Positions 24,767-46,938 of a stretch of DNA of 64,000 bases are shown here, in pieces. Below the pieces are notes generated by a model. That model made no database searches. It had not been told where the DNA came from and worked only from the letters and a program-made list of their open reading frames with translations. Position numbers and translations under genes: made by a program. Source of the DNA: Eledone cirrhosa (Eukaryota); assembly GCA_964016885.1 (NCBI GenBank), contig OZ024745.1, positions 7,812,001 to 7,876,000 on the forward strand, given 5' to 3'. Numbering within the stretch: the first letter of the stretch is position 1; every line of letters starts with the position of its first letter.

Positions 24767-27584
24767 GATTTGTAGACAGGAAAAAGTTAAAAGAAACAAC
24801 AGCTAAGGTAAACAAAGTCATCCCATACCTTGAGGCGAGGAGCCTTCACCAGTGCAACAATATCCTCAAAGCAACAGCAAATACGGTGAGGAAACTACTT
24901 GGTATAAAAGCGAGAGGAAACAACAGACAAGAAAGAGCAGAGCCTTGGTGGAAGAAACGACTGAGTGGTCAAATCAGGGAAATGAGAAATGACATTGGAA
25001 AGCTTGAGACCCTACTGAATGGGACACTAAAAAACATAGACACTAAAAATAGACTGGAAATAAAGTACAAAACTAGGAGGAAAAAGCTAAATATTATCAT
25101 AGAGGAACTGAAGCAACGCATTGTAGCAAAGAGTGCAAAAATCAGGCGATACGAGAGCAGAGTCAGTCAGTATAGACAGAACCGCATGTTCGACAACAAT
25201 CAGAAGATGCTGTTTGGACAGCTTGAAGGGAAAGAAAGAGGCAACGACTTGATCCCTGAGGCGGAACAAACTAAAACATTCTGGAGAGGAATATGGGAGC
25301 AGGATGTTAAACATAATGACCAGGCAGTGTGGATTGAGACAGTACAGAAGGAGATTAGTGAACAGACACACCAACAAACTGATTTGAGTATCACAGTTGA
25401 AACTCTTAAGGGGAAGGCCAAAAAACTAACCAATTGGAAATCACCAGGCCCAGATGGTGTGCAGGGGTATTGGATTAAAAATATAACATCCCTCCACCCG
25501 AAACTGACAACCATGTTCAATGACTGCTTGATGTCAGGTGAGGTACCAGAGTAGTTGACAAAAGGTACCACAGTTCTGGTAATAAAAGACCGAATCAAGG
25601 GTAATGATGTTACCAACTATAGACCTATCACATGTCTGTCCGTAATGTGGAAACTGTTGACAAGCATTATGTCTGAGGAAATCTACCATCACCTCCACAC
25701 AAACAACTTGTTACCGGACGAACAGAAAGGATGCCGAAAGAAGTCCCCTGGTACAAAGGACCAGTTACTTATTGATAAGATGGTAATGAGGAATTGCAAG
25801 AGGAGACACACTGGTCTTGCCATGGGATGGATAGACTACAAAAAGGCATTTGACATGGTGCCTCATTCTTGGATCACCAAAAGCCTGGAGATCTTCAAGG
25901 TGGCAGATAACAACAGACAGTTGTTGGGCAAAAGTATGAAGTCCTGGGAAACAGTGTTAACATCAACTGGAGAATCCTTGGGAAGCGTGAAGATCAAGAG
26001 AGGTATCTTCCAGGGAGATAGTCTGTCCCCTCTGTTGTTTGTCCTTGCCCTGATGCCCCTGACCAGTGTACTGCGAAAAGTGAGAGCAGGATACAGGTTG
26101 GGAAAGGGAGGGCTTACCATCAATCACCTCCTCTTCATGGACGATCTTAAGCTCTTCGGGAAGAGTGAGAAGGAGTTGGATGTGCTTGTTGACACTGTCC
26201 GTATTTTCAGCAATGATATATGTATGCAATTTGGTATTAGTAAGTGTGGAGTCATTGTGATGAAGAGGGGTAAGTTGAGCAGAAGTAACGGAATCCAGGT
26301 ACCAACAGGTGAGATGATAAAGGAAATTGACTCTGAAGAAGGATACAAGTATTTGGGCGTTCTGGAGGCTGATGACATCAAGAACAATAAAATGAAGGAA
26401 TTGATAAGAACTGAAGACATTCGGAGAGTAAGGGGCGTATTAAAGTCACATCTGAACAGTAGGAATGCCATAAGTGCAGTAAATTCCCGAGCTGTGTCTA
26501 TTATTAGGTACAGTGCGGGAATTCTGAGATGGAATGTTGCTGAACAAAAAGAAATGGATAGGAAGACTAGGAAGCTATTGACTATCTACAACATGTTCCA
26601 CAAGAGAAGTGATGTCGATAGACTCTACTTAAGGAGATCTGAAGGTGGAAGATGTCTTATCAGTATAGAGGACTGTGTTCAGATGGAGAAAAATAACCTA
26701 CACAAATACGTGACTGATAGTAAGGAGCCAATGCTCAGAACTGTACTGAAGGAGGGGACAATAGGCCAGGGATGTCCAAGGAGGAAATAACATCAAGGAG
26801 AAAGAGCAGCCTTCAGGAAAAATCCCTTCATAGTACCTTCTTTGAGAAAACTAAATTTAGAGATCCACAGACATGGAACTGGTTGAAAAGAGGAGACCTT
26901 AAAAAGGCTACAGAAGGAATGTTAATGGCTGTGCAGGAGCAGGCCCTCAAAACGAAGTGGTTGAAACACCATATTTACAAGGAGGAGGCTAGCCCACTGT
27001 GCAGGATCTGTGGAGAGAGAGGGGAGACTGTGGCTCACATTGGGTGATCCACTGGCACCTATGCAAAGTAAACAATTTACCACATTCTGAGAAATGGTAT
27101 GAGCATAAGCCAGAGCCGGTGATAGAAAACGATCAGGTGAAGGTGCTGTGGGATTTTAGGATACAGACGGACAAGAAACTGGAACACAGTAGACCTGACC
27201 TGGTGGTTGTGGACAAAGAAAAAAGATCGTGCCTGATTGTGGATGTGGCCTGCCCATTCGACACGAGAGTGCAAGAGAAGGAGAGGGAGAAAATTAACCG
27301 ATACCAGGACTTAAAGTGGGAGGTAAAAAGGATTTGGAACTGCCATGAAGTCAAGGTGATCTCGATTGTCATAGGCGCACTAGGGACTATCTCAAAAAGT
27401 TTCCAGGGATGGTTAAAGAAAATTGGCCCCTTCACGCTTTTTGGAACGCTTCAAAAGGCATGCTTGCTGGGAACAGCAAGAACCCTCCGATACGTCCTGA
27501 ATATCTGAGGCTGCAGGTAGTGGCTTGATATTCATTTCAACAAACTTTCCAGTTAACTAACATCAATGACTGAGACTCAAAGAG
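24767..27584 (+). mobile_element. R4/Dong-clade RT-REL retrotransposon, family D1, 5'-truncated copy 1
   Basis: [61 protein letters not shown]; stop at 25552-25554, frameshifts, and a deletion near 27042 removing RHD; ends in (TAA)n. Confidence 0.92.
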
Positions 27585-27591
27585 TAATAAC

Positions 27592-27633
<42 letters not shown>
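27585..27633. repeat. (AAT)n junction between a D1 tail and the Tx1-B tail (tail-to-tail)
   Basis: Directly visible. Confidence 0.95.
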
Positions 27634-27892
27634 TTCATTTATTGGCCACAAGGGCCGACATATAGGGGACAATACAAAAGACTGGGACATGGGGTTTTAC
27701 AGAAAAATCGAGTAAACAATATGAATAACAATAACAAAGTAACAATAAAGTAACAAGAAAATTACAAGAAAAAATTCCCCAATAGGGGGAATGACCACCT
27801 AGGGTTCGCTCAAGTACCCCACCAGTCCTGAACGACCCGACGCTTCGAGAGCCCCCTGGAAGGGCACCCTTATCCTCTTCAAATTTACCTAC

Positions 27893-30800
27893 CTACAGCC
27901 ACATGACCAGAGTAGGCCCACTCACACGGGCCACTCTCGTCACATTCACCCACCTTTCAGCAAATGTACTGGGGGGGGGGGGGGGGCAGCACTTCTCTCT
28001 GCACCCTCACCTTCCTTTCCAAGTGAAACTTGAAAAAGTTGATGAGGGATTGGCCGAAGAGAAAAGTGTCTGTCTTCAGTCCTTTTCAACCTGGTCCACC
28101 ATACAACCTCTTTCGCTACTGCCACCAGGCAGAGGAAAATTGACTGCTCTTCCTGGCCAAAAGAAGGCGGCGGGTCGATCTTTACTATGGACTCGGCCGA
28201 TAGCCGGATCCGTTCTACACGCGACAATAGCTGTTCGACATAACTCCACAAGTCAGTAATGCACGGACACTGGACGAGTGCGTACAGAACAGTTTCGTCG
28301 TTCTGTGCGCATCTCGGGCAGGTCCGTCTGACAGCACTTCCGTGCCTGTAGAGTTTATCCCGAACCGGCAGCGCCCCTCGGTAGCACTGCCAGGCGAGGG
28401 ATTTTTGGAAATTATCCATCGTGCCCGGCTCGAAAGTCCTCCGGTAGAGACTGGTTAGTTCGACTTCGTTGACTCCCAGATCCTCTCTGAGTGCGTCGTC
28501 GCACTTGCCCACCACTAATCCTCTATAGAACTCGAGAGTGGAAGTTCCACTGACTGCATTGCCCGCCTGGTAGAGGGCAGTGAGTGCCTGGCAACATTCC
28601 AGATGCCAGTCACCCAGTCTCGGTCTCTTCTTGACCCAGGACTGCAACTCAGTCAAAGAAACGAGCTGCGGAAAGGCCCGTCTGACAAACGGCGACCACA
28701 CCTGTTCACCGCTTAGTCAGAATATCTGGAGATTCCGCAGCCTCAACGCGTGCCTGCGCATCATTAGCCACGGCATGCCCAGCCCTCCACGTAGAGGGTG
28801 CTGGCAGCAGATGGACCGCCTCACCAGCGGAACCTGACCCCTCCACAATAATTTGAAGAGGAGCCGCTCCAAGATGGCGAGGCGCGAACGGGGGCAAGGG
28901 ACGACAGTCAGACGGTAGTAGATGACGGACGCGATGTACGCGTTCGCCACCTCCGCCAGACCTTTCAGTGATAGCTTCATCCCAGCCCATTTCTGGGTGA
29001 GACTGACTATCCTGCCCGTCACCTCGTCCCAAGTCTTATACACCTCGAGGTCTGGCCCGAACCAACCCCTAGCAACTTTACCGGTCCGTCCAGCGCCTAA
29101 CGACGCTGTTGGACGGCATGGACTTACCTCTCCAGGTGCTGAGTTGCAAGCCCACTGACTTTTCTGGGTTAAGTTTTGCTCCCATTAACCTTTCATATTC
29201 CTCCAATAAGTTGCCGACCACCTCGATTTCTGAGGTGTCCGACACCATCACGATGATGTCGTCCGCATAAGCCGACACAGCCCTTCCGCGTCCCGGTTCG
29301 AGCGGGATGCCCTGCAACAGCTCCAGCTTCCGCAGTAAAGGCTCGAGAGTCAATACGTACAGGAGGGAGGAGAGAGGGCACCTTTGACGAACCGACCGGG
29401 AGACCTGAAATGGTTCCGAGAGGTGGCCATTAATTTTGACCATCGAGCAGGTGCCGCTGTACATTGCAGCGATCCAGCTTCTGAAGACGGGGCCGAAGCC
29501 AGCCGCCTTGAGGACAGCCTCCAGGTACCGATGGTCGACCCTATCGAATGCTTTCGATTGATCTAAATTGATCAGAGACCCACCGAAGCGAGGTTTACAC
29601 CCTACCCTCTCTATGATGTATCGCATTAGGTGGAGGTTGTCGTGTATGGACCTGGTTGGGATTGCGCAAGTTTGCGCCTCCCCAACCAAATCCCCGACGA
29701 CAAGCGCCAACCTCTTCGCTAACACCCTGGCCAAAATCTGAGCAGAGTTATGGGCCTGAAATTGTCTAATGTGTCCCTCTTGTTCTCGTCTTTCCTTATC
29801 AGCGTCACTACGCCTCGGCTCACAGAACTGGGAATACTCCCGCTTTGCTGCCAGTTGCAGTAGAGGGCTTCTGGCATATTTACGTAAAGCTCGTAGGGCA
29901 GACCATCCAAACCGGGTGACTTGCGCCTCATGCAGCCAACAAGGGCATCCTGAATCTCGGCTGAAGTAATTGGCCTTTCGCAGCGCCCAGCGTCAGCCGT
30001 CGAGAGTTGCGGCAAGCCATCGAGGTAGGGACTGAAGTCCGTCAACATCTCTGACCCGCCACTTCCCCCGAACAACCGAGCACATCCTCTTGGAATCGCT
30101 TAGCTTGTGCCCGTGTCGGTCCGTCAAAGACCGAATCGTGGTTTTATTACCACGCTGCGCCTCTGCCAGGCGGGCCCATCGAACAGCTTTGGTTCCCTCG
30201 TTTCTCAGAGCACGCGCCTTAGCTCTGACAATGCAACCTTCGTGTTTCGCATTGAAGAAATGGTCTAATGCCATTCTCGCCGCTAGCACATCAGTTGCAA
30301 TGCCACTACCAATAGCCCCGTCTAACTTATCTACTAACTCCCCCTCCTTTCTATTTTTCTCTAATGCTACTTCTTTGCTAAACTCTATCGACATTACTCT
30401 AATCTCTCTTTTGAGAGCCCCCCATCATCTATTGTTGACGACTCCCCCTGTCAACTTTTTCTTAACTAAATTGTTGACCTGGTCTCTGAAAGCCTTACGT
30501 GCCGGAAATGACATGTTTAGCTTCCAGTAATCAGGTCCTAACCTACGCGTCTTATCTAGGTCAACCATACAGATCACAAACTTGTGATCTGAATAGGCGA
30601 CCGTTTCAAAACGTGGACAGCTTACACTATTTCTGTCTATTTTCTTAATGAATATCCTGTCTATATACGATCTAGATGACCCTATGCTGTTAGCCCAGGT
30701 CCACACTGGCGCATTAGGGAAATCTAGTCGGTACCTGTCAGACAGTTAGAACTGGCTGATCAGGTTCTTGAGGCTTTTGCACTCCCCGCTCCTATCGGAT

Positions 30801-31263
30801 ACTCCCACACAGTCCCAGCGTACGTCTAAGATGCCGTTCCAGTCCCCCGCTAACAGTAAAGGGTGAGACGTACCCAGAAAGGCTTCCAGGCGTCTAAAGA
30901 AGTTCGGCCTTCCTGCCCCAGTAGGAGCATAGACGGCCACCAGTCTAAAGGCACCACCTTCATTATTGTTCACGTCCAGGACCACCAACTTCTCGTCCGG
31001 GTCCCGGAAGATCGACCTTACCTCGAGATCCAGGCCTTTCTAAACAGCACTGCCACCCCGCCTCCCATTCCCGGCCGGCTAACAGATGCAAAGATCTGAT
31101 AGTCGTCGAAAATGGGGGCTAGTGCGCGCGTGTCGGAAATCCTGGTCTCGCTGACTGCAATTACATCCATTTCTATAGACCTGAGGTCTTTGAGCAGGTG
31201 ACCCTGCTTCTAGGACGATCCCAGGCCTCGAACATTTAAACATCCTACTCTTAATACGGCCAT
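27893..31263 (-). pseudogene. Tx1-B ORF2 APE-RT-CCHC (multiple stops and frameshifts)
   Basis: MAVLRVGCLNVRGL start, VYAPTGAG, GDWN, SDH, KSPGLDG, DQSKAFD, YADD, CPRCAQNDET. Confidence 0.92.
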
Positions 31264-31298
31264 GTTGGCAGGTTAAACAGAGAGAGAGGAAGGTTTAC

Positions 31299-33272
31299 TT
31301 ACCTTCCGGGCTCTTGTGAAGGTCGGGTTGTTCGACCTCCATAGTTAGTGGGATTTCTTTGGGAACCCCTTTAAAATTCTTGAAGTGGGTTTTACGTTCA
31401 GGCTTCCCACGCCCCGAGGAAAGCTGTCTTGTATTTCTTTGAATATGTCGAGCGACATTCGCACCAGAACCAAATCTTCCGGCACGCGAAATGTGCTCGA
31501 TTTAAAAATGTCCTCCACTTTTTGTATATTTTCACTTCGTGCTACGAGGGCCATCAGTTTCTTGTTGACCCTCCTGACGAGCACGAAGTATTGTATGTTT
31601 TGTTGGTGTGATTTTATTTGTTTGCGTGGCTGTGGGTGTGATGGTTTTGGTGGTGTTGTTTCGGTTGTATCTGTGTTTGTTGTGAGTGCGGTGTCTGTGG
31701 TTTCAGATGTTTGTGTGTATATTTGTTCTTGCGTCTGTTTCGGTTGTTTGCGTTTGGGAGATTCTGGTGATGGTGATGGTGGTGTTGATGTTGGTGTTAT
31801 TGGAGAGATGTTTGCGTGGGTGGTGTCTGCGTTTTTTATTGTGGGTGCTTTTGTGCTTTGTTGATTTTTCTTTTTCTTTTTGTGTTTCCTTTTTTGTATT
31901 TTGGGGGATTTGGGATTTCCCTCATTTTCACTACTGGTAGATGAGGGGTCTGTGTCTGTAAGTGTGTCTGTATGTATGTTTATGGTTTTATTGGTGTGTG
32001 TATTTTTGGGGGGAGGGGGAATTTGACAGCTTTCCTCGTTTCCCCCCTGGGTGGTCAATGTTGGTGGTGGTCTTTCTATTGGTGTTGTTGTTGGTGGTTT
32101 TGCCGGTGCTGGTGTTGGTTGTGGTCCTCGCCCCGGCGTCGGCAGCAGTGGAGCCTTTCGACTCCTTGCCACTTTCAGCAGTTGAGGGCAGAAGACTCGC
32201 AAATGGGTTTTTTTCTCCACAAACAAAACACTGCGGCCTTTTGCCTTCGGTCATAATGTGAATGACCGTCCCATTCTGAAGGCGGATGTGGTCCGGGATT
32301 GTCTTCACATTCTCGGGCCTGATCTGGAGAAGGATCTCCAGGTCAACCCCGGATCAGTCCTCTCTGGCCGTTCTGGTCACTTCTATAGGGACTGTATCCG
32401 TCCCCTCCAAAATCACACATCCCAGAAGCCACCACATGTCAAGTCCTGGTGGGATTCTGGGAAAGTGGAGACGGGCCGTTCTTTCTCCCATGTGGGAGGG
32501 GTACATTATGATCTTGCTGGTTTTGCAAGGAGTCATAGCGTGTTTTATAGCGAGGGCTTCTGACTTGAACAACACCGAAATGGTGCCGTACTGTCTGCCC
32601 CTCTCTATGTACTGGGTGTCTTCTCTGATGCACCTCAGCGCGACTTCGACATCTTCTTGTGGGATTAAAGCTGCCCTTTTGGTTTGTGCTGAGATGCATC
32701 TATAATGCACCGTTTTGCGCTCCACTGCCTCAATAGCTTCTACCGGGACAGTTAAGTTGGCCCAAGTTTGCTCTTGCTTGATGAGCTTCCATGCCTGGGC
32801 CAACTTTCATCTTTGTTTGAGAGGTCCATGTTGAAGCATGGCCTCTTTTTTGCTGCTGCCGCAGCGAAAGTGTTCTTCTTGTTTTCATTGGGGGTTTTGT
32901 TGTCGTTGTTCTTGTTGGTGTTGTTGTTAGCACTGTCGCTGTTATCATTGTTGTCTTTGTTGCCACCGTTGTTCTCGGTGCAGTTGGTATTGTTGCTGTT
33001 GGTGTTGTCGCTATTTGTTTTCATGTTAGTGGTGTTGATATTGTTGTTGTATTTGTTTTGTTTTTTTTGTTATCTGTATTTTCGTTGTCACTGTTACTGT
33101 CATTTTTTTCAAAATTAGAGTTCTTATTGGTATCATTGGTGTCTTTGTTTACCTTGTTTGTGGTGGTGTTTGTGTTATCAATGTGTGTTAATTTCGCTGT
33201 AGCGCTCCTCTCAACTTCCACGTCGTTGTCGCACGACAGCCGATATATCGCTGGGGCGCGTGGCTCACCCAT
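31299..33272 (-). pseudogene. Tx1-B ORF1 (frameshifted)
   Basis: Starts MGEPRAP; pieces YIERGRQYGTISVLF and EGKRPQCFVCGEK/THLRVFC are homologous to Tx1-A ORF1. Confidence 0.8.
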
Positions 33273-33468
33273 GTTTTTTTTTCTTCGTAAATTTTTTAAC
33301 ATGTAAAACAAAGTTCAAATATTTGGGCCAAAAGGCCCAAATATTATACTTTCCCCTTCACGGGGCAAAGTCTAAGAGCTTATATCCCTTACACAACAAG
33401 AAATATTTAACAACAAATAATTTTAACAGGCAAATAAAGCGACTTACTGTGACCAATAATAATAGACC

Positions 33469-33598
<130 letters not shown>

Positions 33599-34568: not shown

Positions 34569-37500
34569 CCCCGTGACCAAGAAATACCGGGATGGTGGCC
34601 GGCGGGGAATAGCCGTGTCTCTAGGGGAGAACGACCCCTCTAGTCTTGGTTGACACTCGTTCTAGAAGTGGTAACACGAAATGATTACCCCTTGGCGGAT
34701 AAGGATAAAACGCGACAAAATAAAGTAAATGTCTAATGATAAAATCTCATACCGGATCGACCGTCACCCGGGTAAAAAAGGGCCGCGTCCCTCAGAGAGG
34801 AACCAGACTGGGGTCGAAAAATCAGCTAATGGTTCAAACCTTCCCATCACTTCGGAGCTGGAGACCTCCCATAACCGGAATACTCCTACTGTTGGCCCTC
34901 CATGCTCACCACCAAGAAATCCAAAGAAAAAGAGAGAAAATGGTCAAGGGAAGATAATAAAGAAGTCCTTGAGGCTTTCTACACTGCCATGTACTACCCA
35001 TCAAATACATCGAATACAGAACAGACATATATCAACTGGAAAAAGAAACATCCCGAAAACAGAGGCTATATTGACAGTAACAAACTAGCCAATATACGAA
35101 GAAATATTGTAAGAAAAAAGTTACTAACTGATATAGAAATTGATCAGATCAAGCTAGTAGCACAAAGTCAGCGAAGGGAAAATGAAACATGTGTCAGTGA
35201 AAATGAGGTAAACTGTAACACTTCGAACCCCAGGGTTGGGGCGGAATCACTGGCAACAGAACAAATTAAAGAAAGGATCGAAAAAGTGGAGGGAGTGCAT
35301 GCTCAGGATGAAACTCCAAATGAAAATAATGAGATCGTAAATGATAAAGAAATGAATGAGAATGAACTTGCCAACTTGAAGGATGAAATTATGATCGAAT
35401 GGATGAAAATGAAAGAATCTGACATGGGGCAACGAGACACCCTCCCTAAGATCCAGAACTCCAAACAGAACCAAAAGATAATACACAAGACTAACATAAT
35501 TCTCAAAAACATTATCATCACAAACAAACTAAACATTACTGATTTAAATCATCTCTATTATGCATCGGCTAAAGTCACCACTCACTTATGTGGAGTGAAG
35601 ATGTAAAAACAAAGGAATTCCCACAAGAAATCTACTTGGCAAGAGAACATCAATCGCCAAATAAACCTTCTCCGATCTGACATAGAAATTTTAACAAACT
35701 ATAAAGTAGGTGAACATGTTAAACAAAGTAAACTTAGAAAATTGAAAAAAAAGTACAGTATAAAATCAACATGTGACATAGACATGCTGATAGAAATAAT
35801 CAAGCAAAAAGTGTCGGCCAAAGCTGCTCGTATAAGGCGCTTTGAAAAACGATCTAGATTCTATAAGGACAATAATATGTTCAAAAACAACCAAAGAAAC
35901 TTCTACAGAAAAATTGGTAAGTCAACAATAACTGCTAAATCAATACCACCCAAGGAGGAAGTGCAAGAATTCTGGGAAAAGATCTGGGCCGAAGAAAAAG
36001 TTCATAACATACATGCCCCATGGATAGACAGACAAATGAAAGATACAGCTCACCTTGAGGAACAAATATGGGAAAATATAACAGTTGAACAGTTGCGCTT
36101 GGCTCTAAGAAAAACCAGCAAATGGAAATCCCCAGGAAAAGACAAAATACAAAACTTTTGGATAAATGCCTTCACAGAGTCTCATGAGCTGTTAGCCCAA
36201 CTTTACAATGAAATAGTTAAGGAGCCAGAAAAGATACCATCATCGCTAGTTAACGGCATTACATTCCTGCTTCCGAAGAATGATGAGACAAACAATCCCA
36301 AATATTACAGACCGATAACTTGCTTGACCACAATGTATAAAATTTTAACATCAGTCCTAACTGAATACACATATGACCACCTGATAACAAATGACCTATT
36401 TCCCATTGAGCAGAAAGGGTGTAAACGAGGCTCATATGGCTGTAAGGATCAGCTTCTGGTTAACAAAATGATACTGGAAGATTGTCATAATAGACACAAA
36501 AATCTATCGATTGCTTGGATAGATTATAAAAAAGCATTCGATAGTTTGCCACACGGTTGGATTGAAAGATGTTTAGAGATTTTCAAAATATCCCCCGTTG
36601 TCAGGAGGTTTTTGTCATTCAGTATGAAGACATGGAAAACGACACTCCTTTTGAATAGTGAAACAAAATCACTGGAAGCTGGAGAAGTTAATATTAATTG
36701 TGGAATTTTTCAGGGTGACTCTTTATCACCGCTTTTATTCTGCATCGCTCTTATACCATTAAGTAAAATGCTCAATGAAACAAAACATGGATATAAAGTC
36801 TATGACAAAACCATTAATCACCTGTTCTACATGGATGACCTGAAACTATTTGCAAAAAATGATGAACAATTGCAAGGGCTATTATCCACTGTGGAGCAGT
36901 TCAGTGATGACATTAAAATGGAGTTTGGACTAGATAAATGCGCCAAAGCAACGTTCACCAGAGGAAAGCTGCTGAAGAGTTCAGACATTAATCTTGATCG
37001 GGGGAACGTGATAAGAGAACTTGATCAAGAAAAAACTTACAAATATCTAGGTGTTTGTGAAGGAGACGGAATCAAGCACTCGACAATGAGGGAAAGGATA
37101 AGGAAGGAATGTTACCGCAGAGTAAGAGCAATCTTAAGAACGGAATTGAATGCAAGGAATAGGATCGATGCCATAAACACGCTTGCCATACCAGTAGTAA
37201 CCTACAGTTACAATGTCATCAACTGGTCAAGCACAGAGATCCGTAGGCTCGATACAAAAATTCGAAAATTCTTAACCATGCACAGAATGCATCACCCTAA
37301 GGCAGATATAGATAGAATATATCTCCCTAGGAAAGAAGGAGGACGTGGGTTAATCCAGTTAGACATTGCGTTGAAAACTGCGACAATTGGATTATCTACA
37401 TATCTAAGGGAATCACATGATTGGATGATCAAACTCGTTTTGAAACACGAAAGCATCAAAAGATCATATTCCATTACAAAAGATGCACAAAGATACAGAA

Positions 37501-38520
37501 TGGACTACAAATTTCAGAAGTCCCATTTACTGCTGAAATGGAAAACACAGAAAAAGCAAAGCAGGTAAAAGTAACTGCAAAGAAAGAACTGCTACAGAAA
37601 CTGGCTAAGAAATGGCAAGAAAAGCCTCTGTATGGAAAATACCCAGAGCGAGCTAACAATCCTGATGTTGACAAAACTTTAACCCATCAGTGGTTGGCAT
37701 CCTCTGGACTGAAATCGGAGACTGAAGGACTGATTATATCGGCACAAGATCAGTGTCTGCCAACAAAAAATTACCAAGCCAACATAATAAAAAATGGATG
37801 CAGCCCATTATGCCGTGTATACAAAAAACAACCAGAGACCATTGACCATATAATTTCAATGTGCAGTCCTATAGCTCCAACCGAATACCTAAACAGGCAT
37901 GACAGAGCTGCACAATACATACATTGGATAATGTGTAAGCATTTTGACCCGCCCTATCAAAAGAATTGGTGGGAGCATCAACCACCTCCCATACTTGAAA
38001 AAGATCACATCTCAATCTTGTGGAACTTTAGCATCCAAACAGACCGAAAAATAGATGCAAATAGACCTGATATAATATTGGAGGACTTTAAAAAGAGGGT
38101 ATGCCTGCTAATTGATATGTCTGTTCCAATAGACAAGAATGTATCTATAAAAACATTTGAAAAATTGAGCAAGTATAAGGACCTGGAGATAGAAATTGGA
38201 AAAATGTGGAAATTGAGAACTAAAACAATACCAGTGGTTGTAGGCGCTCTGGGAATGATACCTAAGGGGTCTATTGATTACTTATCGCAAATCCCAGGAA
38301 ACCCGCGTATAGGAGAAATACAAAAGATAGTACTAATGGGAACTGCCCATATACTAAGGAAGATTCTGTCAATATAAGTACATCACAAGTCTAAACACTA
38401 AAGATGCATGTGTGAGTATGTATGTTCTTTCTTGAACATGGCGGACCTTGTTGTCTCTTGAGGTCACTGGTTGTGACTTGGTGATAACTCGTATGAACAT
38501 AAAGCAAGATAAATGCAACT
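34569..38520 (+). mobile_element. R4/Dong-clade RT-REL retrotransposon, family D2, apparently full-length
   Basis: Structured 5' UTR, a single disrupted ORF and a 3' UTR ending gataaatgcaact followed by (ATA)n; the exact 5' end is uncertain (34499-34569). Confidence 0.9.
34729..38377 (+). pseudogene. D2 polyprotein: N-terminal domain, RT, CCHC, restriction-like endonuclease
   Basis: [80 protein letters not shown]; frameshifts near 34900 and 37500, stop at 35604-35606. Confidence 0.92.
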
Positions 38521-40035: not shown

Positions 40036-40100
<65 letters not shown>

Positions 40101-40102
<2 letters not shown>

Positions 40103-42751
40103 CATTGGAAAGCTTGAGTCCCTACTGAATCGGACACTAAAAAACATAGACACTAAAAATAGACTGAAAATAAAGTACAAAACTAGGAGGAAAATGCTAA
40201 ATATTATCATAGAGGAACTGAAGCAACGCATTGTAGCAAAGAGTGCAAAAATTAAGCGATACGAGAACAGAGTCAGTCAGTATAGACAGAACCGCATGTT
40301 TGACAACAACCAGAAAATGTTGTTTGGACAGTTGAAGGGAAAGAAAGAGGCAACGACTTGATCCCTGAGGCGGAACAAACTAAGACATTCTGGAGAGGAA
40401 TATGGGAGCAGGATGTTAAACATAATGACCAGGCAGTGTCGATTGAGACAGTACAAAAGAAGATTAGTGAACAGACACACCAACAAACTGATTTGAGTAT
40501 CACAGTTGAAACTCTTAAGGGGAAGGCCAAAAAACTAACCAACTGGAAATCACCAGGCCCAGATGGTGTGCAGGGGTATTGGATTAAAAATATAACATTC
40601 CTCCACCCGAAACTGACAACCATGTTCAATGACTGCTTGATGTCAGGTGAGGTACCAGAGTGGTTGACAAAAGGTACCACAGTTCTGGTAATGAAAGACC
40701 GAATCAAGGGTAATGATGTTACCAACTATAGACCTATCACATGTCTATCCGTAATGTGGAAACTGTTGACAAGCATTGTGTCTGAGGAAATCTACCATCA
40801 CCTCCACACAAACAACTTGTTACCGGACGAACAGAAAGGATGCCGAAAGAAGTCCCCTGGTACAAAGGACCAGTTACTTATTGATAAGATGGTAATGAGG
40901 AATTGCAAGAGGAGACACACTGGTCTTGCCATGGGATGGATAGACTACAAAAAGGCATTCGACATGGTGCCTCGATCTTGGATCACCAAAAGCCTAGAGA
41001 TCTTCAAGGTGGCAGATAACATCAGACAGTTGTTGGGCAAAAGTATGAAGTCCTGGAAAACAGAGTTAACATCAGCTGGAGAATCCTTGGGAGGCGTGAA
41101 GATCAAGAGAGGTATCTTCCAGGGAGATAGTCTGTCCCCACTGTTGTTTGTCCTTTCCCTGATGCCCCTGACCATTATATTGCGAAAAGTGAGAGTAGGA
41201 TACAAGTTGGGAAAGGGAGAGCTTACCACCAATCAGCTCCTCTTCATGGACGATCTTAAGCTCTTCGGGAAGAATGAGAAGGAGTTGGATGTGCTTGTTG
41301 ACACTCCGTATTTTCAGCAATGATATATGTATGCAATTTGGTATTAGTAAGTGTGGAGTCCTTGTAATGAAGAGGGGTAAATTGAGCAGAAGCAACGGAA
41401 TCCAGGTACCAACAGGTGAGATGATAAAGGAAATTGACACTGAAGAAGGATACAAGTATTTGGGTGTTCTGGAGGCTGATGACACCAAGAACAAAAAAAT
41501 GAAGGAATTGATAAGATCTGAATACATTCGGAGAGTAAGGACCGTATTAAAATCCCATCTGAACAGTAGGAATGCCATAAGTGCAGTAAATTCCCGAGCT
41601 GTGTCTATTATTAGGTACAGTGCAGGAATTCTGAGATGGAATGCTGCTGAACAAAAAGAAAAGGATAGGAAGACTAGGAAGCTATTGACTATCTACAACA
41701 TGTTCCACAAGAGGAGTGATGTCGATAGACTCTACTTAAGGAGATCTGAAGGTGGAAGAGGTCTTATCAGCATAGAGGACTGTGTTCAGATGGAGAAAAA
41801 CAACCTACACAAATACGTGACTGATAGTAAGGAGCCAATGCTCAGAACTGTACTGAAGGAGAGGACAATAGACCAGGGGATGTCCAAGGAGGAAATAACA
41901 ACAAGGAGAAAGAGCAACCTTCATGAAAAATCCCTTCATAGTACCTTCTTTGAGAAAACTGAATTCAGAGATCCACAGACATGGAACTGGTTGAAAAGAG
42001 GAGACCTTAAAAAGGCTACAGAATGAATGCTAATGGCTGCGCAAGAGCAGGCCCTCAAAACGAAGTGGCTGAAACACCATATTTACAAGGAGGAGGCTAG
42101 CCCACTGTGCAGGATCTGTGGAGAGAGAGAGGAGACTGTGGCTCATATTGTATCCGAGTGTAAACACCTAGCCCAGACTCACCTTAAGGGCTGGAGACAT
42201 GATGTGATGGGCAGGGTGATCCACTGGCACCTATGCAAAGTAACCAATTCACCACATTCTGAGAAGTGGTATGAGCATAAGCCAGAGTCGGTGATAGAAA
42301 CGATCAGGTAAAGGTGCTGTGGGATTTCAGGATACAGACGGACAAGAAACTGAAACACAATAGACCTGACCTGGTGGTTTTGGACACGGAAAAAAGATCG
42401 TGCCTGATTGTGGATGTAGCCTGCCCACTCGACACGAGAGTGCAAGAGAAGGAGAGGGAGAAAATTAACTGATACCAGGACTTAAAATGGGAGGTAAAAA
42501 GTATTTGGAACTGCCATGAAGTCAAAGTGGTCCCGATTGTCATAGGCGCACTAGGTGCTATCTCATAAAGTTTCCAGGGATGGTTAAAGAAAATTGGCCC
42601 CGCCCCGTTTTTGGAACACTTCAAAAGGCATGCTTGCTGGGAACAGCAAGAACCCTCCGATACGTCCTGAATATCTGAGGCTGCAGGTAGTGGCTTGATA
42701 TTCATTTCAACAAACTTTCCGGTTAACTAACATCAATGACTGAGACTCAAA

Positions 42752-42753
<2 letters not shown>
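40101..42753 (+). mobile_element. D1 copy 2, 5'-truncated, disrupted
   Basis: Collinear with 24991-27584; retains ETVAHIVSEC and RHD; flanked by (AAT)n at 40036-40100 and 42754-42811. Confidence 0.93.
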
Positions 42754-42811
<58 letters not shown>

Positions 42812-42830
42812 GTACTGAAGGAGGGGACAA

Positions 42831-44670
42831 AATCACTGGAAGCTGGAGAAGTTAATATTAATTGTGGAATTTTTCAGGGTGACTCTTTATCACCGCTTTT
42901 ATTCTGCATCGCACTTATACCATTAAGTAAAATGCTCAATGAAACAAAACATGGATATAGAGTCTATGACAAAACCATTAATCACTTGTTCTACATGGAT
43001 GACCTGAAACTATTTGCAAAAAATGATGAACAATTGCAAGGGTTATTATCCACTGTGGAGCAGTTCAGTGATGACATTAAAATGGAGTTTGGACTAGATA
43101 AATGCGCCAAAGCAACGTTCACCAGAGGAAAGCTGCTGAAGAGTTCAGACATTAATCTTGATCGGGGGAACGTGATAAGAGAACTTGATCAAGAAAAAAC
43201 TTACAAATATCTAGGTGTTTGTGAAGGAGACGGAATCAAGCACTCGACAATGAGGGAAAGGATAAGGAAGGAATGTTACCGCAGAGTAAGAGCAATCTTA
43301 AGAACGGAATTGATTGCAAGGAATAGGATCGATGCCATAAACACGCTTGCCATACCAGTAGTAACCTACAGTTACAATGTCATCAACTGGTCAAGCACAG
43401 AGATCCGTAGGCTCGATACAAAAATTCGAAAATTCCTAACCATGCACAGAATGCATCACCCTAAGGCAGATATAGATAGAATATATCTCCCTAGGAAAGA
43501 AGGAGGACGTGGGTTAGTCCAGTTAGACATTGCGTTGAAAACTGCAACAATTGGATTATCTACATATCTAAGGGAATCACATGATTGGATGATCAAACTC
43601 GTTTTGAAACACGAAAGCATCAAAAGATCATATTCCATTACAAAGATGCACAAAGATACAGTAATGGACTACAAATTTACTGCTGAAATGGAAAACACAG
43701 AAAAAGCAAAGCAGGTAAAAGTAACTGCAAAGAAAGAACTGCTACAGAAACTGGCTAAGAAATGGCAAGAAAAGTCTCTGTATGGAAAATACACAGAGCG
43801 AGCTAACAATCCTGATGTTGACAAAACTTTAACCCATCAGTGGTTGGCATCCTCTGGACTGAAATCGGAGACTGAAGGACTGATTATATCAGCACAAGAT
43901 CAGTGTCTGCCAACAAAAAATTACCAAGCCAACATAATAAAAAATGGATGCAGCCCATTATGCCGTGTATGCAAAAAACAACCAGAGACCATTGACCATA
44001 TAATTTCAATGTGCAGTCCTATAGCTCCAACCGAATACCTAAGCAGGCATGACAGAGCTCCACAATACATACATTGGATAATGTGTAAGCATTTTGACCT
44101 GCCCCATCAAAAGAATTGGTGGGAGCCTCAACCACCTCCCATACTTGAAAAAGATCACATCTCAATCTTGTGGAACTTTAGCATCCAAACAGACCGAAAA
44201 ATAGATGCAAATAGACCTGATATAATATTGAAGGACTTTAAAAAGAGGGTACGCCTGCTAATTAATATGTCCGTTCCAATAGACAAGAATGTATGTATAA
44301 AAACATTTGAAAAATTGAGCAAGTATAAGGACCTGGAGATACAAATTGGAAAAATGTGGAAATTGAGAACTAAAACAATACCAGTGGTTGTGGGCGCTCT
44401 GGGAATGATACCTAAGGGGTCTAATGATTACTTATCGCAAATCCCAGGAAACCCGCGTATAGGAGAAATACAAAAGATAGTACTAATGGGAACTGCCCAT
44501 ATACTAAGGAAGATTCTGTCAATATAAGTACATCACAAGTCTAAACACTAAAGATGCATGTGTGAGTATGTATGTTCTTTCTTGAACATGGCGGACCTTG
44601 TTTTCTCTTGAGGTCACTGGTTGTGACTTGGTGATAACTCGTATGAACATAAAGCAATATAAATGCAACT

Positions 44671-44671: not shown

Positions 44672-44737
<66 letters not shown>

Positions 44738-45642: not shown

Positions 45643-45682
<40 letters not shown>

Positions 45683-46601
45683 TACAAACATGAAAATATG
45701 AAATATTCCCAATCAGTCTCGTACAGAAATCCTTTTTAGGAGAATAGCTTAGAGATTGGACGGATATGATATTGTGCGAAAAGAAACAGGAAATTCATTG
45801 CAGGCATACAAAAAGAGAGAAAAAACTGACATAATTACACATCTAAAGGCGATTAGACTTTACACACCGGATATCCGGTTACTGTTTGATGGCTGATGCT
45901 TAATTTGAAATAGAATTAATAGTAATTCTTTTTATCTAATTCATGTTCACTTTGAAATAACTTTAAAAAAAAAAATTACAATTGGGTTAGGGCTATTCCC
46001 CAACGACAAACTGGCATAATTAAAGACTATCTGGTATGATAACAACATGGAATGAAGGAAACGAAACCGAGAATACCGGTAAAGGTTGTGTCGTTCTTCC
46101 CGCCTTCATAGATTCTGTTAGGGTTTTATAACACCGCTGTTTCTCTGTGAAGCTTATACGTAACTGGAGGGCGTTAAAATACGAATAATTTATGTCGGTC
46201 TCTTTTCAGCGTGACTTTCCTCTTCTCTCTGATGTAGGTAAATACAAAGAGTAATTTGCCAGCTTTTATTTATTTATTCCTTTATTCTTTTCTTATTGTT
46301 AAAATTACATGTCTCACAACAAAGAAACTGACAAAGTCACAAACACTGTGATTTAATAATGTTTAGGATAAATACGTCTTTGATTATACGTCTGCACTTA
46401 GGTTTCTCCTGCCAGAGAACCCGTAGAACGACAATCTTATTGCCACACTGGTATAGCCACCTCATTAATTGATACTTTCTAAGGTTTGTCTGTTAGTTTT
46501 TCATCACAATCTAAATGTTTCAAAATTATGATAAAAGTTCAGTCCTAGACTGTGCTTCAGATTCCAAAATACAGCTTATTTCAACGAAAACATCGCAGAT
46601 T

Positions 46602-46938
46602 CTATAGCTACATTAAACCAGAACCTATAGCTACATTCAACCAGAACCTATAGCTAGATTCAACCAGAACCTATAGCTACATTCAACCAACACCAATAGC
46701 TACATTCAACCAGAACCTATAGCTACATTCAACCAGAATCTATAGCTACATTCAACCAGAATCTATAGCTACATTCAACCAGAACCTATAGCTACATTCA
46801 ACCAACATCAATAGCTACATTCAACCAGAACCTATAGCTACATTCAACTAGAACATATAGCTACATTCAACCAGAATCTATAGCTACATTCAACCAGAAC
46901 CTATAGCTACATTCAACCAACATCAATAGCTACATTCA
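46602..46938. repeat. 23-bp minisatellite (ctatagctacattcaaccagaac), about 14-15 copies
   Basis: Units start at 46625 and 46648. Confidence 0.95.

Follow-up and report, generated by a model that had tools for sequence, protein, structure and literature searches.

A conserved splice-donor motif at the end of ORF1 in Tx1-like LINEs and a predicted ORF1-only mRNA

Overview

Two Tx1-like LINEs on the minus strand of a stretch of Eledone cirrhosa DNA (the window, meaning the whole 64,000 nucleotides analysed) carry the splice-donor motif G/GTAAGT, the slash marking the putative exon end, where ORF1 gives way to ORF2. A donor at or just past the ORF1 stop is kept, together with the ORF2 ATG, in both elements (Tx1-A and Tx1-B), in a distant family found in the bacterial genome bin G001 and in a copy from a second bin, G002. 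In the explanation to which we give roughly even weight, this first donor (D1) would be joined to a 3' UTR acceptor, removing ORF2 and yielding an ORF1-only mRNA, with the unspliced RNA as transposition template. A previous sequence-only reading had seen in the same motif a 53-nt intron that fuses ORF1 to ORF2; its observation is mostly real, its fusion is unsupported, and the ORF1-only splice, itself a prediction from sequence, is the better founded of the two.

The usual account of LINEs is of bicistronic RNAs without introns, where splicing happens by accident and leads to a dead end. Were the ORF1-only splice to be real, the ratio of ORF1 to ORF2 would be set in a programmed manner in a LINE clade, in convergence with the solution of Copia elements, and a path to ORF1-only (HAL1-like) elements would be open; the retained 3' UTR intron would, moreover, allow the reach of cis-preference to be tested directly.

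Anatomy and class of the two elements

Microsatellites and LINEs abound in the window, a stretch of animal DNA in which Tx1-A extends over ~24700-18740 and the decayed Tx1-B over ~33450-27630 (Table 1). The two share 74% identity in ORF2 DNA and 31% in the RNA-binding/CCHC core of ORF1, and the ORF2 of B aligns to that of A at 59-68%; they are diverged Tx1 families with a common donor, as had been proposed. Pfam domains PF03372, PF00078 and PF13966 (APE endonuclease, reverse transcriptase (RT) and C-terminal zinc motif) were identified in the ORF2 of Tx1-A, for which a protein search returned an Argonauta hians protein as the closest named homologue. ORF1 gave no significant Pfam match and no relatives in protein searches, and its atlas feature matches (0.91-0.93) were to zf-CCHC / ZCCHC3-RBD clusters; the Tx1-A endonuclease returned no loci from viral, genome and metagenome collections.

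Neither element has LTRs. AATAAA followed by (ATT)n closes both 3' ends, (ATT)n also lies upstream, and 5'-truncated units are present among the G001 relatives, as is usual for non-LTR elements. The proteins of A and B are those of ordinary Tx1/L1-group LINEs, and we take the elements to be Tx1 from the type of their ORF1, the tree described below having comprised unnamed relatives alone. Membership of Ty1/Copia, with its LTRs and protease-integrase-RT order, was considered and ruled out for these APE-RT non-LTR elements.

Table 1. Features of Tx1-A and Tx1-B in the window (positions of the whole stretch)
Feature	Position	Strand	Remark
Tx1-A ORF1	22431..24524	-	intact, 697 aa; its stop TAA lies inside the donor
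Tx1-A donor D1, G/GTAAGT	22429..22435	-	sole G/GTRAGT in the element
Tx1-A ORF2	18984..22395	-	Exo_endo_phos, RVT_1, zf-RVT; one stop, one late frameshift
Tx1-A 3' UTR candidate acceptor	18826..18889	-	62-nt AG-free U-rich tract ending CGCAG (G at 18826)
Tx1-A AATAAA and (ATT)n tail/target	18689..18752	-	
Tx1-B ORF1	31345..33272	-	broken; C-terminal domain frame ends at TAA 31347-31345, 42 nt upstream of D1
Tx1-B predicted hairpin	31288..31307	-	7 bp; pairs the donor with the start of the pyrimidine tract
Tx1-B donor D1, G/GTAAGT	31297..31303	-	GT at 31302-31301, in GGAAG/GTAAGT
Tx1-B pyrimidine-rich donor-to-ATG spacer	31264..31296	-	14 of 33 positions match A
Tx1-B ORF2 start codon, AAC ATG G	31261..31263	-	offset as in A
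Tx1-B proposed acceptor AAG (+53, phase 2) and competing TAG (+58, phase 1)	31245..31252	-	both from ORF2 codons 4-7
Tx1-B ORF2	27893..31263	-	APE-RT-zf, decayed; against A, 8 non-triplet gaps and 4 stops
Tx1-B ORF2 stop, then donor-like TAG/GTAGGT	27887..27895	-	possible D2, one mismatch; inferred from the D2 of relatives
Tx1-B 3' UTR candidate acceptor region	27682..27798	-	U-rich AG-free zone of 115 nt, ending CAG 27682; exact site uncertain
Tx1-B AATAAA and (ATT)n tail/target	27585..27643	-	

The donor at the ORF1-ORF2 junction

The geometry that had been described for B is exact: the donor GT (31302-31301) overlaps a TAA (31301-31299) that lies 35 nt ahead of the ATG at 31263, and the first AG downstream of the donor falls at +53 (AAG, 31252-31250), in phase 2 of ORF2. 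The offsets in Tx1-A are identical (donor 22434, ATG 22395, CAG at +53). The donor is unlikely to be kept by chance, judging from the rarity of the 7-mer and its low neutral retention, and the earlier view that it is under selection holds. G/GTRAGT is expected at ~1.2e-4 per site, or 0.5% over 45 nt; A has a single one in 5961 nt, at the junction, and B has two in 5818 nt. At four-fold sites of ORF2, A and B agree in 221 of 385 cases (57%), so that under neutrality the 7-mer would persist at one offset with a probability of ~2% (0.574^7). Taken alone, the search for the motif with an ATG was not significant, its count being reached by 11 of 100 and 22 of 100 shuffles.

The remaining parts of the proposed intron fared less well. 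Constancy of spacer length is confined to the pair, with 35 nt in both A and B and 14-15 nt in more distant relatives. The AG at +53, read as a selected acceptor, is explained by the coding sequence, since codon 5 is Arg in A and B and 37 of the 69 Arg codons of the A ORF2 are AGR; the codon specifies Lys or another residue in many related endonucleases, and in B the candidate is an AAG with a TAG 5 nt downstream. On the other hand, the fallback offered with the fusion, namely a spacer that serves reinitiation only, leaves the retention of a perfect donor unexplained.

The pyrimidine run past the donor might pair with it or might help U1 to bind, in a TIA-1-like manner. The hairpin predicted for B (-14.4 kcal/mol, z -2.61) was matched by 3 of 200 shuffles, and none was predicted at the donor of Tx1-A (z 0.40).

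A further point concerns the end of ORF1 in B, which had been placed at the TAA within the donor. As was then cautioned, the main ORF1-B frame stops at 31347-31345, and it is this frame that is homologous to the C-terminal domain of A (score 60 against 26.8+/-4.8, reached by 0 of 300 shuffles). The frame ending in QEPGR has a stop at 31373-31371, so that a single frameshift into it must fall within 26 nt, an event of ~3% at the indel rate of B (8 non-triplet gaps in 3345 nt). A third candidate ending, PEGK, would stop at 31297-31295 and give a phase-1 donor in frame with the TAG at +58, at ~7% by the same rate. Beyond the C-terminal domain, the tail of A aligns with no frame of B (scores reached by 515, 932 and 883 of 1000 shuffles). 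If ORF1-B ends at 31345, no frameshift is needed and the donor lies 42 nt past the stop, in the same class as in G001; the B donor is probably situated past the ORF1 stop.

Public contigs identify B as a copy of a larger family ~10% away (one contig differs by 64 letters and 6 gaps over 30767-31346), and they mark the premature ORF2-B stop at 31211 as specific to this copy. Both junctions are present unspliced in other public contigs, that with the A junction differing by one letter over 22150-22550. The comparison covered 22150-31750 in four of six runs, with 40 of 1278 substitutions, 12 of 73 indels and 15 of 2625 joints listed. Among the 15 listed joints, within a stretch that ends short of the UTR acceptor of A, there was no 53-nt skip and no skip from the B donor to the UTR, a result that says nothing on rare forms; no indel between 31040 and 31444 was among the 12 listed.

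Distant relatives

More distant elements were reached by a search with a relative, P0010, and lie on host-derived contigs within the two bacterial genome bins, G001 and G002. In G001, tandem arrays with 69 ORF2 matches include an intact element, the ORF2 of which is 43% identical to that of A over 689 aa. Its junction consists of the ORF1 stop, G/GTAAGT, 7 nt and the ATG, placing the donor 13 nt ahead of the start of ORF2. A donor past the ORF1 stop was found at all 24 G001 loci with an ORF2 start and at 35 of 38 junctions in 18 stretches, counts that come from tandem copies of one family and represent one lineage rather than independent cases. There is no pyrimidine tract at this junction, and codon 5 does not begin with AG. 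In G002, the copy L124 keeps GAG/GTAAGT past a TAG stop, 11 nt ahead of the ATG and with a changed spacer; it has the one perfect donor among four decayed junctions, the donors of the other three being damaged or deleted. Loss of the junction in L125 was considered as a splice and rejected in favour of a deletion between TAA repeats.

The three G001 misses all belong to the subfamily C13 (3 of 3 junctions), which has no donor at the ORF1 stop and shows a TAATG stop-start overlap (L117 6060-6075); its sole upstream donor, CTG/GTAAGT, lies ~213 nt inside ORF2. This perfect donor (L117 ~6285) is perhaps a shifted D1. The outgroup elements L137 and L139 have no donor at the junction, and the ORF1 end of L138 is missing. 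A quick tree of 21 rows, none dropped and rooted at the midpoint, places A/B as sister to (C13,(P0002,(P0010,G001/G002))), with SH-aLRT of 100 for A/B and 99 for G001/G002, and the ORF2 divergence over which the donor is retained amounts to ~1.5 substitutions per site. On this evidence the donor may be ancestral and have been lost or displaced in C13, or it may have arisen twice. In P0089 and P0120, reading runs through unspliced, decayed junctions; donors read back from these two were dropped as too ambiguous.

These relatives bear directly on the proposal that removal of a 53-nt intron, phase 2 at both ends, joins the two ORFs of A and B in frame, which we now consider very unlikely. In its favour stand a consensus 5' splice site, a first AG at +53 in both elements and a frame that fits in A, with CAG; additionally, only the A/B clade has the longer pyrimidine spacer, and a second, lineage-specific use is possible there. 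In related families, however, the spacer varies, an outcome that the earlier reading had itself named as refuting its proposal and that largely rules out fusion as the general role. The donor of these families lies past the stop, from where it cannot join ORF1 to ORF2, and in G001, which also lacks the pyrimidine tract and the codon-5 AG, fusion is impossible, as it is in L124. In B itself fusion requires both the frameshift within 26 nt (~3%) and the use of AAG beside a TAG, the in-frame YAG is not conserved (AAG in B, absent in G001, an Arg/Lys codon), and the ORF2 ATG is retained everywhere. Moreover, a fused mRNA encoding the RT would be copied in cis and lose its intron, whereas contigs bridge both junctions unspliced, and no fused ORF1-ORF2 protein was found among the best 150 representatives or three long homologues.

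Several features of these contigs were observed in passing. The ~69 copies on G001 contigs C3-C19 (L002-L025, L057-L070, L117-L122) form head-to-tail arrays with a period of 6.4-6.9 kb, and the element seems to use these arrays as its own insertion target. Between some subfamilies the identity of ORF1 falls to 38-44%, whereas the ORF2s are close. An intact animal LINE in a bacterial genome bin amounts to host contamination of a reference genome, and G002:C16 (539 kb) and L137-L139 are further contigs with eukaryotic retrotransposons in such bins.

The second donor and the 3' UTR acceptors

A second donor (D2) lies within 40 nt of the ORF2 stop in 33 of 38 UTRs of the relatives, the other five having GA/GTAAGT, and a pyrimidine tract with YAG follows ~250 nt past D2 (in C13, ~180 nt from the stop). 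In L002, D1 and D2 are the only two G/GTRAGT in 6450 nt, each within 20 nt past a stop codon. Across six aligned subfamily UTRs, GTRAGTA and the acceptor TAG are invariant and their flanks variable. The spacing of donor, pyrimidines and YAG (36 nt) is found again in L002 at D2, within non-coding UTR, which argues against its serving to fuse reading frames at D1. The D2 intron showed no covariation (0 of 31 pairs), and Rfam gave no match in three loci; an 11-bp inverted repeat was seen in five of the six aligned UTRs within the 249-nt interval from D2 to the acceptor (L002 6486-6735).

Candidate acceptors are recognisable in the window as well. Past D1, the longest zone free of AG terminates at a YAG of the 3' UTR in A (1 of 122 YAG sites), B (1 of 128) and L002 (1 of 127), and also in C13. 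Shuffled UTRs reached such a site in 84 (A), 9 (B), 61 (L002) and 2 (C13) of 2000 cases, figures that are optimistic, as the thresholds were set from the real sites; furthermore, U-rich 3' UTRs yield long AG-free zones regardless, which weighs against this evidence. The candidate acceptor is invariant in G001/G002, evident in A and ill-defined in B. The UTR CAG of A has no aligned AG in B, A has no clear D2, and the acceptor of the relatives may serve D2 alone.

The same 20-mer, with a CCCC/GGGG hairpin, occurs in both 3' UTRs (A 18885-18866, B 27789-27770). Being upstream of the U-rich tract, it lies inside the predicted intron, and it is a candidate recognition element for ORF2.

Two rival explanations need no splicing at the donors. 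According to the first, which we regard as unlikely, the motif is a landing site for U1 snRNP, rarely or never spliced, that blocks premature polyadenylation and so lets transcription continue through ORF2 (telescripting). Such a role accounts for both donors and for the presence of all intervening DNA in every genomic copy, fits the hairpin predicted at the B donor and has a precedent in the donor of the EVD Copia element, for which a role of U1 against premature termination has been shown (PMC5580714, in part). It leaves unexplained the invariant 3' UTR TAG behind a pyrimidine tract and the placement of both donors directly past stop codons; it is also compatible with an ORF1-only mRNA, the two not being mutually exclusive. 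The second, to our mind quite unlikely, gives the motif no part in splicing or U1 binding and treats its likeness to a donor as incidental to a strong stop context (TAAG) or a termination-reinitiation signal. That the TAA is the stop in A, that ORF2 has its own ATG and that C13 and L137 show a TAATG overlap, as in SART1 (PMC5972666, in part), speak for it; against it, GTAAGT is separate from the stop in G001, in L124 and probably in B, and the motif recurs past ORF2, where nothing reinitiates.

A model of ORF1-only mRNA

The preferred explanation remains the evenly weighted splice from D1 to the 3' UTR. The GTAAGT at the end of ORF1 would act as a conserved donor, joined to the 3' UTR acceptor in a splice that cuts out the entire ORF2 (~3.6-3.7 kb; 3609 nt in A and 3745 nt in L002). 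The resulting mRNA would supply ORF1 protein in excess; unspliced full-length RNA would give ORF2 protein from its own conserved ATG by termination-reinitiation and would serve as the template for transposition. The splice product predicted for A keeps ORF1 open, with 20 extra codons and a stop ahead of AATAAA.

In all genomic copies examined the intervening sequence is still present. An mRNA without ORF2 cannot copy itself in cis, and cis-preference (PMC5860796, in part) would explain this retention; the ORF1-only splice thereby avoids the flaw of the fusion, in which a spliced RNA encoding the RT would be copied in cis and the intron erased. Mapping of 14 G001 stretches, in which the short units are 5'-truncated, revealed no ORF1-only (spliced) DNA copy, and there was none among the G002 copies. 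The D2 intron is likewise kept, in 38 of 38 UTRs, a retention that goes beyond cis-preference and calls for an extra assumption. C13, L137 and L139, which lack a donor at the ORF1 stop, and the decayed G002 junctions, of which one in four keeps it perfect, count against the ORF1-only model.

A broader proposal, which we advance tentatively and at somewhat less than even weight, is that of a Tx1 LINE clade with retrovirus-like control of isoforms. With a spliceosomal donor past either stop codon and a single 3' UTR acceptor, ORF1-only and trimmed mRNAs would be produced, only the unspliced RNA would be reverse-transcribed, and introns on the sense strand would be kept for good.

Comparison with known systems

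The closest counterparts are the non-LTR retrotransposons of the Tx1 clade (L1 group), among them the L1-Tx1 families of Octopus vulgaris, of which 13 recent ones are listed (PMC13282606, in part). They share with A and B an ORF1 with RNA-binding and CCHC domains, an ORF2 of APE-RT-zf-RVT order, an end of AATAAA and simple repeats, and 5'-truncated copies; the elements described here differ in their conserved donors past both stop codons and in the 3' UTR acceptor. Neither 'splic' nor 'intron' occurs in the main text of PMC13282606.

In the plant Ty1/Copia element EVD, a spliced subgenomic gag RNA makes the structural protein only and the unspliced RNA serves as enzyme source and genome, as demonstrated in RNA (PMC5580714, in part). 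Both systems have a conserved donor of U1 type where the structural ORF ends, and the same division of labour between spliced and unspliced RNA is predicted here. EVD, however, is an LTR element with a short intron coupled to premature polyadenylation, whereas A and B are non-LTR elements in which the intron, predicted rather than derived from RNA, comprises the whole of ORF2 and the normal poly(A) site would be used.

Mammalian L1 and HAL1 offer parallels, in that a LINE can have functional splice sites and that ORF1-only elements (HAL1) exist (PMC4859970, in part); L1 splicing (SpIREs), located in the 5' UTR/ORF1, is described as a dead end (PMC5860796, in part). The available portions of these two sources yielded no conserved donor at the ORF1 stop. 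Termination-reinitiation as in SART1 and L1 is the likely route to ORF2 from unspliced RNA, and C13 and L137 share the TAATG overlap (PMC5972666, in part); in that process a donor motif is neither involved nor needed. Introns in TART are antisense (PMC1636488, in part).

No LINE in which a conserved donor, located where ORF1 stops, removes or fuses ORF2 was found in the literature, coverage of which is incomplete and includes parts of PMC5537684, PMC8616336 and PMC10294476. The motif had no match in the accessible content of four of the eight supplementary files of PMC9115989, nor in part of supplementary file 24 of PMC10294476.

Other observations in the window and its relatives

Both Tx1 elements and several RT elements (24988-27042, 34875-38377, 40098-42150 and 42812-44527), the latter presumably R4/Dong-like, are stacked in (AAT)n runs (18689-18740, 24738-24766, 27585-27633, 33455-33557, 40036-40100, 42753-42811, 44672-44737 and 45643-45684), a clustering of microsatellite-targeting LINEs of two clades. 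Minisatellite arrays lie at 9630-11285, 46602-46938 and 57074-57743, with units of 37, 23 and 28 nt, respectively. GTAAGT is also found at the extreme 5' end of B (33447) and close to that of G001 units (L002 ~783 / 7222), and pyrimidine tracts with AG precede ORF1 in L006; together with the 5'-end GTAAGT, these sites could delimit a 5' UTR intron.
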